A stretch of 64,000 nt of DNA from a phage. Each line of letters begins with the position of its first letter. The first letter of the stretch is position 1. The translations under genes were made by a program, and so were the position numbers. The notes under the pieces are model-generated. The model had not been told where the DNA came from and searched no databases. It saw only the letters and a program-made list of their open reading frames with translations. Location of the stretch: sequence record PZ386947.1; one strand, 5' to 3'. Below are positions 36,289 to 45,003 of this stretch, piece after piece.

Positions 36289-36466
36289 CTAAACGAATAG
36301 GTTCATGAATGCCATATCCTTGAACAGAAATTTCTGTCGTAGGATAAATTCCATTAATATCACCCATGTTCCATGCTTCGTTAAATTGCTGTTCGCCTGA
36401 ATTACTAAACCACTCGGCGAAAGCATTTAGCACATCTTCAGAACCTTCAATAATTATCTTTGCCAT
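36245..36466 (-). CDS. hypothetical protein
   Basis: 73 aa ORF. Confidence 0.45.
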   Translation of the reverse strand: MAKIIIEGSEDVLNAFAEWFSNSGEQQFNEAWNMGDINGIYPTTEISVQGYGIHEPIRLVEYDLCTGEEVKYD

Positions 36467-36828
36467 TACAAACTCTCGGTGAAGGTACGAGCGATAACGT
36501 CGCGCTGCTGTTCCGGAGTCAGAGAGTTAAAGCGAACTGCATAACCGGATACACGGATGGTCAGCTGCGGATATTTTTCCGGATGCTTAACTGCATCTTC
36601 CAGAGTTTCACGACGCAGAACGTTAACGTTCAGGTGTTGACCACCTTCAATTTTAACTGTAGGCTGTTGCTCAATTTCAATTTCACGGGCATGCAAACCA
36701 TAGAAAATTTCTGGGTCTACAAAAGAGTCCTCTTTAAAGGTTTTAGAGACAATAATTCGTGCTTGAATACCATCTTCAAAATAAATAGTACCTTTATGTG
36801 TGCCTTCAAGAATTTGATATGCTTTCAT
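36466..36828 (-). CDS. autonomous glycyl radical cofactor (GrcA/YfiD-like)
   Basis: 120 aa; C-terminal 60 aa [59 protein letters not shown] carries the PFL-type glycyl radical motif RVSGY. The 3' half of the gene (about 36466-36660) is visibly more GC-rich than its surroundings. Confidence 0.85.
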
Positions 36829-36834
36829 ATAACC

Positions 36835-37215
36835 TCAATTAGAAAATAAATTTATCCAAGATTGTTCTTTAATTAAAAATGGCTCAGAATCATATGCCAT
36901 TAAACTCTGTGTGATTAGTCCTTTAAAAGGCCCATCAATAAATTCCATGGTAAAATATGGAATTTTATTCATTAGCCGTGCATTAGGAGCCGTGCACAAA
37001 ACTCTGCATCCTTTGAATACGCCTTTTTGTAATTTGTATTGCTTGGGATAAAATTCGCTCAAAATGTTATTTTTTGCCAAAATTTCAAAATGATTCACCA
37101 ATTTATTTTTAATAGTTTTTGGCGAAAAATAAAGATATTCGAAAAGCTGAGTGTCTGTCATCATTGCATTCCGATTACGAAAAACTGTGGACGAGTAATA
37201 CCACCAATGCAACAT
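36835..37215 (-). CDS. hypothetical protein
   Basis: 126 aa ORF. Confidence 0.45.
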   Translation of the reverse strand: MLHWWYYSSTVFRNRNAMMTDTQLFEYLYFSPKTIKNKLVNHFEILAKNNILSEFYPKQYKLQKGVFKGCRVLCTAPNARLMNKIPYFTMEFIDGPFKGLITQSLMAYDSEPFLIKEQSWINLFSN

Positions 37216-42997: not shown

Positions 42998-43044
42998 CTT
43001 ATTTCCTGTTTTAATTCGTGGTTTTAATATACTTATTTATACTA

Positions 43045-43070
43045 AAAAGCCCCAACCTTTCGGTCGGGGC
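43045..43070 (-). terminator. rho-independent terminator (copy 2)
   Basis: Same hairpin AAAAGCCCCAACCTTTCGGTCGGGGCTAAG; minus-strand U-tract follows. Confidence 0.6.
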
Positions 43071-43122
43071 TAAGCCTTGCGGCAACCTTGTCGGGGTTCC
43101 ACCTGCTAAGGCAAGTGTTTGT

Positions 43123-43213
43123 ACGAAACGCCGGGATTCGAACCCGGTTATTAAGCAGTTGACGCTACTCAATATTTTTAAAAGGCCATATCTCGACCAT
43201 ATCCGAACGTTCC
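43123..43213 (-). ncRNA. candidate structured small RNA / tRNA remnant
   Basis: GC-rich non-coding stretch with a perfect tRNA-like T-arm (CCGGG-ATTCGAA-CCCGG, plus coords 43131-43147) but no foldable anticodon arm. Confidence 0.3.
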
Positions 43214-43380
43214 GTCAAAAACGCTACTCGGCTTACGGCAAAGATATTTCCTCGAATCGATAATTCGGTGCGCCGTTTCTGCTGTGATGTAAGAGGGCAT
43301 CAATAAACGCAAAGATTATTAACGCAATTCCTTACTCAGGGAACATCAGTCCGACGACTTACCGGTAGCGACCCGGTTTC

Positions 43381-43749: not shown

Positions 43750-43825
43750 TGGTCGAGGCAGTAGGGATCGAACCTACGACCTAGGACTTAGAAGGTCCTT
43801 GCTCTTCCTTCTGAGCTATGCCCCG
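43750..43825 (-). tRNA. tRNA-Arg (anticodon UCU)
   Basis: Hand-folded: acceptor CGGGGCA/TGCCTCG, T-arm CCTAC-GATCGAA-GTAGG (plus view), anticodon loop CTTCTAA, encoded CCA. Confidence 0.85.
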
Positions 43826-43829
43826 TAAT

Positions 43830-43919
43830 TGGGGTGACCGATGGGAGTCGAACCACCCGAGTCGCAATGACAATGGATTTACAGTCCACACCGCTACCTC
43901 TACGGGATAACTCCCCTTA
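43830..43919 (-). ncRNA. tRNA-like RNA with Tyr-type anticodon loop (possible pseudo-tRNA or stable RNA)
   Basis: Sits between tRNA-Arg and tRNA-Ile with CCA-like end; good anticodon stem-loop GUGGA-CUGUAAA-UCCAU but T-stem and acceptor stem do not pair canonically. Confidence 0.35.
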
Positions 43920-43929
43920 ATTCTTAATT

Positions 43930-44004
43930 TGGTGGCCCTGGGTGGAATTGAACCACCATCTGGCGATTATGAGTCGCTTGCTTGAACCTTCCAGCTACAG
44001 GGCC
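43930..44004 (-). tRNA. tRNA-Ile (anticodon CAU, Ile2-type; Met not excluded)
   Basis: Acceptor GGCCCTG, T-arm GGTGG-TTCAATT-CCACC, anticodon loop CTCATAA, encoded CCA. Confidence 0.8.
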
Positions 44005-44005
44005 T

Positions 44006-44081
44006 TGGTGCTGATTGACGGAATCGAACCGCCGACCTTCTCATTACAAGTGAGTTGCTCTACCTACTGAGCTAAATCAGC
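44006..44081 (-). tRNA. tRNA-Thr (anticodon UGU)
   Basis: Acceptor GCTGATT, T-arm GGCGG-TTCGATT-CCGTC, anticodon loop CTTGTAA, encoded CCA. Confidence 0.85.
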
Positions 44082-44086
44082 AAAAC

Positions 44087-44176
44087 TGGCGGAGGCGATA
44101 GGATTTGAACCTATGAGTCGCCGGAGCGACTGCCGGTTTTCAAGACCGGTGCATTAAACCACTCTGCCACGCCTCC
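44087..44176 (-). tRNA. tRNA-Ser (anticodon UGA), class II
   Basis: Sequence GGAGGCGTGGCAGAGTGG...CCGGTCTTGAAAACCGG... with long variable arm; matches T4 tRNA-Ser as I recall it. Confidence 0.9.
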
Positions 44177-44182
44177 AAATAT

Positions 44183-44833
44183 TTATATATTGTTAATTTG
44201 ATTTAGAATTCTTTTTGCTTGAGTATGACTTACGCCAATATGCTTAGCATATTTAGACAATTCGCCACGTTTAGAAAAATCATATAATTTAGAAATTTCT
44301 ATTCTTCTTTTTCTTTCATCCGCAGAAACTTTTGCTTCGTTTGCTTTTGCTATTTTACGTTTAGCTTCTTGAGAATGAGTTTTACCAGCAAAGCCATTCT
44401 TCATTAATCCATTTGAAGACCATCCTTTTAATTTTCCGTTAGAATGTGCCTTTTTAACACCCAATGAAATTAATTCGCGTTGCTGATCTGTCATAGGATA
44501 ATTATTTATATGATCCCATCCACCTTCACCTCCAAGTTTTAAATTATACACATCTGGTCTATTTAAAAACTCTTCTGTGACAATATTTTTCTCGGCTTCA
44601 AGCATAGATTCTTTATCGTCAAAATACTCTAATATTTCTTTAGAAAAATTTTCTATACCATATTTATCTTGGGCTCTTTTTAATAATTTACCAGAACCCA
44701 TATATCCATCATCTAAATTTTCGGTAGAATGCACACCAATATAAATTTTATTATTAATTTTATTTGTTATTTTATAAAGATAAAAATGCATATCAGTCCC
44801 TAATAAAGAACTGAGCGTCTCACGACGAGTCAT
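44183..44833 (-). CDS. segB: GIY-YIG homing endonuclease (SegB-like)
   Basis: 216 aa; GIY-YIG motif FYLYKITNKINNKIYIGVH; C-terminal DNA-binding region; sits inside the tRNA cluster as T4 segB does. Confidence 0.85.
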   Translation of the reverse strand: MTRRETLSSLLGTDMHFYLYKITNKINNKIYIGVHSTENLDDGYMGSGKLLKRAQDKYGIENFSKEILEYFDDKESMLEAEKNIVTEEFLNRPDVYNLKLGGEGGWDHINNYPMTDQQRELISLGVKKAHSNGKLKGWSSNGLMKNGFAGKTHSQEAKRKIAKANEAKVSADERKRRIEISKLYDFSKRGELSKYAKHIGVSHTQAKRILNQINNI

Positions 44834-44837
44834 AAAT

Positions 44838-44911
<74 letters not shown>

Positions 44912-44916
44912 AAATT

Positions 44917-45003
44917 TGGTGCGAGAAGTGGGACTCGAACCCACAAGGAAATCATTCCGCAGCATTTTAAGTGCTGTGCCTTTACCAATTTGACCATTCT
45001 CGC
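44917..45003 (-). tRNA. tRNA-Leu (anticodon UAA), class II
   Basis: Acceptor GCGAGAA, long variable arm, anticodon loop CTTAAAA, T-arm GTGGG-TTCGAGT-CCCAC, encoded CCA. Confidence 0.88.

Follow-up and report, generated by a model that had tools for sequence, protein, structure and literature searches.

Host-identical tract within the glycyl radical cofactor gene vs.6 of a T4-like phage

The protein Y06I, encoded by the gene vs.6 of phage T4, is a homologue of GrcA (YfiD) of Escherichia coli. Both proteins acquire their glycyl radical from PFL-AE (PflA), which for Y06I means not from NrdG, and both restore pyruvate formate-lyase (PFL) that has been cleaved by oxygen (Wagner et al. 2001, BBRC 285:456, as cited in PMC8683613). 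In GrcA, the disordered residues 1-60 are required to bind cleaved PFL and for efficient activation, but not for catalysis, while residues 61-127 are structured and share the fold of PFL residues 693-759, the radical site of PFL being Gly734 (PMC8683613). Here, we analyze vs.6 in a 64,000-nucleotide (nt) stretch of phage DNA from sequence record PZ386947.1, hereafter the window. The radical domain of this gene is the host's own, to the nucleotide, and its N-terminal half is a conserved but phage-specific variant.

A comparable type of mosaicism has been described for the cyanophage genes psbA and psbD, in which intragenic recombination between host and phage, patchy GC content, and exchange of segments with host alleles have been reported (Sullivan et al. 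2006, PMC1484495; Zeidner et al. 2005, cited there). Like these genes, vs.6 is a phage copy of a gene for a damage-prone host protein, with a segment closer to the host and a break in GC content. However, it concerns another gene, host, and phage group, and the exchanged segment is a single block, whose 5' junction is the same in every case and whose sequence matches the host at 100%. Moreover, and unlike for psbA, transfer appears to run only from host to phage, the recipient being a strictly lytic T-even phage with modified DNA. What is new here is that the vs.6 mosaic is a further example of host-phage intragenic recombination of the cyanophage psbA type, and apparently a clean and recurrent case of gene conversion from host to virulent phage. 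We found no paper linking grcA/yfiD with T4-like phages at the nucleotide level, an earlier mention being possible in Wagner 2001 or in the 2003 T4 genome review; one comparative paper mentions the match to Gly_radical only and speculates that the gene acts in nucleotide metabolism (PMC1524935).

The window comes from a T4-like phage (Tequatrovirus), and its open reading frame (ORF) at 36466-36828 is vs.6 of T4, that is, Y06I. An initial annotation, made from the sequence of the window alone, had referred to a biochemically characterized T4 homologue, and that homologue (Wagner et al. 2001, in PMC8683613) is this very gene. The vs.6 DNA is 100% identical to that of Escherichia phage Pinarejo and 98.6% identical to vs.6 of T4T, and 119/120 residues are shared with T4, the sole change being Q54 here and P54 in T4. 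As in T4, the gene is located between vs.7 and vs.5 downstream of denV; the two copies differ in this one residue and in the 3' endpoint of the host-identical tract, with five tail mismatches to grcA here compared with two in T4. E. coli GrcA is likewise a stand-alone protein of similar size, with identity in the 60 C-terminal residues and in 169 nt and a homologous N-terminal half. It differs in being seven residues longer (127 aa vs 120 aa) and in its N-terminal half, which is 35% identical over 40 aligned residues. At the gene level, vs.6 has phage codon usage in its 5' half and sits in a phage early-gene cluster, unlike grcA, which lies next to ung. The remaining phage homologues of family phrog_1209, encoded by RB49, T5-like, Cronobacter, Enterobacter, and jumbo Erwinia phages, display the same combination of a variable N-terminal half and a conserved domain containing TFT, yet lack a host-identical tract and differ from every sampled bacterial allele at 22-47 of 167 nt.

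Three-part structure of vs.6

Alignment of vs.6 with E. coli grcA (L001:1302-1685) divides the gene into a phage-type 5' half, a host-identical tract (the core), and a short phage-type tail (Table 1). The edges of the tract are sharp, and at its 3' end it stops short of the end of the gene by 16 nt. The tail mismatches are found at gene positions 348, 351, 354, 357, and 358 (TTC ACC GAG AGT TTG vs TTT ACT GAA AGC CTG). The initial annotation had described the C-terminal 60 residues as those of E. coli GrcA, and residues 61-120 are indeed identical to GrcA residues 68-127; likewise, a nucleotide comparison with grcA returned 169 nt at 100%. The host-like DNA had been placed at 36466-36660, which is close, although the exact tract spans 36482-36650. 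The GC-rich, host-like composition noted for the 3' half also holds. GC content is 50% in the core, compared with 34% in the 5' half and 34.6% in the whole window, and GC at third codon positions (GC3) is 0.46 in the core and 0.20 in the 5' half. Within the tract, five of six leucine codons are CTG and all three proline codons are CCG, compared with 7% and 15%, respectively, in the ORFs of the window. The GC profile is therefore not uniform across the gene, and the break is confirmed by codon usage. By GC content, the tract ranks among the highest 0.5% of 169-nt windows, and similar values are reached only in a tRNA cluster and at positions 43037-43245.

All of 5,426 complete E. coli genomes (5,426/5,426) match the tract at 95-99%, and the E. 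coli sequence is nearly monomorphic here, with 0-1 single-nucleotide polymorphism (SNP) in the sampled genomes. When the whole 64-kb window was compared with the same 5,426 genomes by megablast, this tract and one weak tRNA match were returned and nothing else; the other 39 kb of the window gave no megablast match to E. coli. Constraint on the protein cannot explain the nucleotide identity, since phage L014 encodes the same 60 C-terminal residues and nevertheless departs from E. coli grcA at 27 positions of the 167-nt core (31/183 nt compared). Accordingly, the longest exact run shared with E. coli grcA is 17 nt in L014 and at most 20 nt in alleles without the tract, compared with 167-176 nt in the window and T4.

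The assignment of the protein to the GrcA/YfiD type of glycyl radical cofactors, as the initial annotation had proposed, is supported by several models. Pfam Gly_radical (PF01228) matches residues 60-101 at 2.5e-18 (67 bits, cut-off 22.2), and a motif RVSGYAV, conforming to the glycyl radical motif RVxG[FY] near the C-terminus, is found at residues 92-98. The NCBIfam model for GrcA (TIGR04365, spare_glycyl) aligns with 154.9 bits over residues 20-120, corresponding to model positions 25-126 of 126; the InterPro entry for the GrcA/YfiD family is IPR011140. In addition, the protein matches the solved structure of GrcA (PDB 6OWR, in which the identical residues 68-127 are found) at 9e-42 and phrog_1209 at 5.7e-63, and residues 61-120 align with PFL residues 697-759 at 5e-26. 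On the basis of these alignments, the C-terminal domain is predicted to have the fold of PFL residues 693-759. The N-terminal half is GrcA-like as well, with 14/40 identical positions (35%) between vs.6 residues 22-60 and GrcA residues 28-67 (E 5e-6 in a single comparison), while the N-terminal 60 residues alone gave no match to an NCBIfam model. With its own start codon and a Shine-Dalgarno-like element, and located between vs.7 and vs.5, vs.6 encodes a small stand-alone protein and not the C-terminus of a full glycyl radical enzyme.

Table 1 Coordinates of vs.6 and its parts in the window
Feature	Position	Strand	Description
vs.6 / Y06I coding sequence	36466..36828	minus	120 aa + stop; phage autonomous glycyl radical cofactor, GrcA/YfiD homologue
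Phage-type 5' half	36651..36828	minus	gene positions 1-178, residues 1-60; ~46% nt identity to grcA (82/178); AT-rich; diverged counterpart of the disordered half of GrcA
Host-identical tract, 169 nt	36482..36650	minus	gene positions 179-347; 169/169 identical to E. coli grcA; codes for the larger part of the structured glycyl radical domain
Phage-type 3' tail, 16 nt	36466..36481	minus	gene positions 348-363; last five codons + stop; 5 synonymous mismatches to grcA
Gly95 codon (GGT)	36544..36546	minus	predicted glycyl radical residue in RVSGYAV; aligns to the radical glycine regions of GrcA and PFL (Gly734)
Shine-Dalgarno-like GAGG	36833..36836	minus	4 nt upstream of the vs.6 ATG; overlaps the vs.7 TGA stop; read from the sequence, putative function

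Two other stretches of the window are GC-rich. A cluster of six tRNA genes is located on the minus strand at 43750-45003 (Arg-tct, Met-cat, likely of Ile type, Thr-tgt, Ser-tga, Gly-tcc, and Leu-taa), within which positions 43840-43917 match a plasmid tRNA-Tyr at 88%. The adjoining island at 43037-43245 reaches a GC content of 0.515 in 169-nt windows and contains no tRNA and no Rfam match at the gathering threshold. As the Rfam scan of the GC-rich islands returned tRNAs only, these islands are unrelated to the tract in vs.6. Separately, Enterobacteria phage RB55 (KM607002.1; L166:1015-1375) carries a 13-nt deletion (cggttatgcagtt) within the host-identical tract. The deletion removes the codon of the radical glycine and shifts the frame, and vs.6 is unannotated in this record; the gene may be unnecessary under laboratory conditions, or else the deletion is a sequencing error.

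Segment replacement and its probable recurrence

With E. coli grcA as query, homologues were found in 1,511 phage records, most of which (963) are 60-90% identical. Around 500 records, belonging to Tequatrovirus and Mosigvirus, align with one and the same interval of grcA at 95-99% identity. The remaining homologues, among them those of Jiaodavirus, Cronobacter and Enterobacter phages, RB49, T5-like phages, and jumbo Erwinia phages, are 72-87% identical. The N-terminal halves vary among the phage homologues, and the conserved glycyl radical domain is kept in all. Full-length homologues without a host-identical tract are encoded by Krischvirus (RB49), T5-like, Cronobacter, Enterobacter, and jumbo phages, while the same 5' junction as in the window is seen in ~625 phage records, including T4, T2, RB51, and RB69. 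The GrcA-like N-terminal half, the existence of full-length homologues lacking the tract, and the fact that the tract ends inside the gene together show that a segment was replaced, and not that unrelated parts were fused. As judged from these comparisons, vs.6 has the structure expected of an internal homologous replacement, i.e., gene conversion, in a pre-existing phage grcA homologue. The initial annotation had suggested a host radical domain fused to a phage N-terminus; the host origin of the 3' half stands, but the fusion does not, as the N-terminal half is itself GrcA-like and the tract is internal.

The positions of both junctions are consistent with such an exchange. The 5' junction (codon 60/61, corresponding to GrcA residue 67/68) is found slightly inside the point at which the disordered half of GrcA gives way to its structured domain. 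Since nucleotide similarity between phage and host begins at this junction, a recombination intermediate would be expected to stop there. At the other end, the host sequence at the stop codon is TAAGG, and a tract running through the stop would destroy the start codon of vs.5, which may be why a phage-type tail has been retained.

The direction of transfer can be read from the bacterial side. E. coli and Klebsiella pneumoniae grcA are evenly diverged (30/199 in the 5' part and 21/169 in the core), and the bacterial gene is found in conserved synteny next to ung. In phages, the cores have host-like GC3, and the 5' halves have a GC3 of ~0.2. Even divergence and synteny in bacteria, together with mosaic phage genes carrying cores of host composition, point to transfer from host to phage.

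A second set of phages displays the same structure with another donor. In Jiaodavirus, comprising the Klebsiella phages phiA85, KPN6, PKO111, Shark, KEN25, and K65evo6 and the IMG/VR contigs L028 and L075, the 5' junction is the same and the tail is of phage type. However, the cores encode ETLLDAVEHPEKY, which is the Klebsiella form of GrcA with the Klebsiella-specific LLDAVEH and not the E. coli form. For comparison, bacterial grcA alleles were sampled from NCBI genomes and metagenomes; as the best 80 species of a genome scan with the window protein lacked Klebsiella and E. coli, Klebsiella alleles were taken from genome contigs encoding GrcA and from a metagenome scan. The commonest bacterial allele encodes a protein named GRCA_KLEP7. 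The Jiaodavirus cores differ from alleles of the K. pneumoniae complex at 0-8 of ~167 nt and from E. coli at 21-23. To the nearest such allele, the distance is 0-1 for L075, 3 for L028 and Shark, 5 for KPN6 and KEN25, 6 for K65evo6, and 8 for phiA85, whereas PKO111, at 14, falls outside this range. Tequatrovirus and Mosigvirus cores are 0-3/167 nt from E. coli, and the other phage groups examined lie in the range of 22-47 given above. Given that the tract is 12% divergent between E. coli and Klebsiella and that each group of phages carries the version of the host it infects, no fewer than two independent conversions are needed.

Comparison of cores with flanks, based on pairwise counts with Fisher, Poisson, and hypergeometric tests, further separates the two groups. 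Between Tequatrovirus (the window and T4) and Mosigvirus (RPN187, L007, and L008), 18-20/178 differences are found in the 5' half and 4-5/16 in the tail, but only 0-2/169 in the core (Fisher p ~1e-6). Correspondingly, there are 10-12 synonymous differences in 59 codons of the 5' half and none in 55 core codons (Poisson P ~1e-5 to 9e-5). Jiaodavirus shows the reverse pattern, with flanks differing at 0-8/178 and cores at 7-17/169, almost all synonymous; diversity in the core exceeds that in the flanks by as much as ten-fold. For example, phiA85 and K65evo6 are identical in the 5' half (0/178) and differ at 11/169 positions in the core (p = 3e-4). Differences among Jiaodavirus cores are only synonymous, except for a P-to-S change in Shark. 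This phage has four of the five variants that distinguish bacterial allele L172 (hypergeometric P = 3.6e-6), and its own fifth variant, the P-to-S change, is found in a K. variicola allele. The Klebsiella grcA pool is polymorphic, while that of E. coli is nearly monomorphic, and, judging from these counts, the diversity of the core in each phage group mirrors the allele pool of the host and not the phylogeny of the phages. Furthermore, the 3' endpoint varies among close relatives, with five tail mismatches in the window, four in L003, and two each in T4 and L004. Taken together, the Klebsiella-type tracts, the discordance between core and flanks, and the varying 3' endpoints favor repeated conversion.

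Several other sequences carry related genes. The vs.6 homologue of one Jiaodavirus-like contig (L028:1501-1862, IMGVR_UViG_2974754850_000001) is put out of frame by the loss of 1 nt in its 5' half, although its core is 3 nt from a K. pneumoniae-type allele. Seven IMG/VR contigs of ~150 kb from human-associated metagenomes (L021-L026 and L033) encode a GrcA homologue of ~130 aa with a more bacterial-looking N-terminal half. Their C-terminal domain resembles GrcA of Pasteurellaceae, the closest of the sampled alleles differing at 24-34 of 167 nt. No recent tract is present, but the resemblance suggests separate acquisitions of grcA in other phage lineages. Finally, on metagenome contig OKPS01001587.1 (L215:570-953), the 5' half of a K. 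oxytoca-type grcA is joined to a divergent pfl-like C-terminal domain (MNREMLLDAIAHPENYPNL...TQSI), with a junction zone nearly the same as in the phage mosaics. The join may reflect true exchange among bacterial paralogues, or else a chimera of metagenome assembly.

Competing explanations

The best explanation, to which we assign a probability of roughly 0.85, is that vs.6 is a spare-part gene that became mosaic when host grcA replaced the structured-domain segment of a phage homologue, and that this happened more than once. A phage grcA homologue would have existed first, and its structured-domain segment would then have been swapped for that of chromosomal E. coli grcA by homologous (homeologous) recombination or gene conversion, with the 5' junction falling where the similarity between phage and host starts and the 3' junction within the last ~16 nt. 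Conceivably, the recombination proteins of T4 use fragments of host DNA as donors. The constrained domain, with ~80% similarity in alleles lacking the tract, may permit a first exchange, and the resulting perfect identity may ease further ones. We also lean towards the stronger proposal that T-even phages repeatedly re-copy the radical-domain segment of vs.6 from their current host, the gene thereby evolving in concert with host grcA.

An illegitimate fusion, in which a captured host glycyl radical domain was joined to an unrelated phage N-terminal peptide to form a new chimeric protein, would also account for the sharp break in composition and identity at codon 60/61 and for its proximity to the disordered/structured boundary of GrcA. 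It is nonetheless highly improbable, as the N-terminal half of vs.6 is homologous to that of GrcA (E 5e-6; TIGR04365 over residues 20-120), many phages encode the full-length gene without a host-identical tract, and the last 16 nt are of phage type, placing the tract inside the gene. Slightly less probable still is a single ancient capture of the whole of grcA, after which the 3' half was kept identical to the host by extreme purifying selection on protein or codon usage, recombination playing no further part. At the protein level, the C-terminal domain varies very little in all phage and bacterial homologues, as this would demand, but synonymous sites are free to vary, as seen in the core differences of L014 and in the Jiaodavirus cores. 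Nor would it explain zero synonymous differences in ~56 core codons next to a near-saturated 5' half, or the match of E. coli and Klebsiella phages each to its own host despite the divergence of these hosts in the tract. Transfer from phage to bacterium, or an artifact of assembly or contamination, can practically be set aside. Nothing specific speaks for it beyond the exchange of cyanophage psbA in both directions (PMC1484495), and it conflicts with the conserved ung-grcA synteny and even divergence between bacterial genera, with the host codon usage of the tract, and, in the case of an artifact, with the same in-frame junction in more than 600 independently sequenced phage genomes, T4, T2, RB51, and RB69 among them.

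More weight, although it remains unlikely, is given to a history of two events only, one of E. coli type and one of Klebsiella type, in which all other patterns arose by phage-phage recombination and mutation and conversion was rare and historical. T-even phages recombine readily with each other, and the identical 5' junction in ~625 phage records is what such spread would produce. Against two events stand the up to ten-fold greater diversity of Jiaodavirus cores than flanks, the match of Shark to a specific bacterial haplotype, and 3' endpoints that vary in a nested way among close relatives. Some results do, however, speak for two events or otherwise count against repeated replacement by host grcA. 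In a pooled test, 20/30 Jiaodavirus core variants coincided with bacterial polymorphisms compared with 51% expected (p = 0.066, not significant); since the bacterial pool is too broad for this test, holding half of all synonymous changes, it was replaced by the haplotype-level and flank-versus-core tests. Phage L005 has the E. coli SNP states 213G and 240C, which no E. coli genome combines, so that conversion in L005 is suggestive only, and the pair may have arisen by parallel mutation. The tracts of Tequatrovirus and Mosigvirus may go back to a single event that was passed on by recombination between phages, and not to two host-derived events. The core of PKO111 is 14 nt from any sampled allele, and the metagenome alleles with which the phage cores were compared are assigned to species through protein name only. 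The TIGR04365 score of 154.9 is lower than the NCBI equivalog cut-off of 170, as the N-terminal half of vs.6 has diverged. In addition, T4 degrades host DNA and replaces cytosine with hydroxymethylcytosine, which should make recombination between host and phage rare, and recombination into vs.6 is here read from sequence comparisons. Finally, the matching to the host may be adaptive or may be a neutral by-product of homology.

If segment replacement from the host is the right explanation, the tract attests directly, at the genome level, to recombination between virulent T-even phages and the chromosome of their host in a homologous gene, probably on repeated occasions, despite the destruction of host DNA by these phages and the modification of their own. 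Should re-copying from the host also hold, vs.6 would be a natural reporter of homologous recombination from host to virulent phage, and re-copying might keep the spare part matched to PflA and PflB of the host after host shifts. The vs.6/grcA pair would offer a simple system to measure gene flow from host to lytic phage and any fitness effect of a host-matched domain in microaerobic settings such as the gut.

Proposed function and gene neighborhood

The vs.6 gene and its biochemistry are already known for T4, and no new function is described here. By analogy with the T4 protein and YfiD, the vs.6 protein of this phage would be a spare part that repairs oxygen-damaged PFL of the host. Host PflA (PFL-AE), using S-adenosylmethionine, would place the radical on Gly95, and residues 61-120 would replace the C-terminal radical domain that host PflB loses upon cleavage by oxygen at Gly734, thereby restoring the conversion of pyruvate to acetyl-CoA and formate. 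The phage may gain from this because the shut-off host makes no new GrcA or PflB during infection.

The order of genes around vs.6 is that of T4, with denV, vs.8, vs.7, vs.6, and vs.5 followed further on by regB. The stop codon of vs.6 overlaps the start codon of vs.5 (TAATG), the vs.5 ORF beginning at 36466. A scan for promoters and terminators around vs.6 found nothing above the shuffled expectation, and the lack of a promoter-like site above chance fits co-transcription with the upstream vs genes. For vs.7, the mechanically called ORF (36835-37215) encodes 126 aa, of which the PHROG profile covers residues 18-126 only, and the T4 annotation gives 109 aa; the true start is probably an internal methionine (MMTDTQ...).

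Annotation of vs.6 differs between databases. GenBank entries disagree on the product, with hypothetical protein, pyruvate formate-lyase, and autonomous glycyl radical cofactor all in use. At the position matching vs.6, record AP018813.1 of phage T2 instead lists tail sheath monomer and tail tube protein, apparently because its annotation is shifted. The vs.6 family phrog_1209 is labeled "unknown function" in PHROGs v4, despite the biochemistry on T4 Y06I in 2001, and the assignment made here fills this gap.

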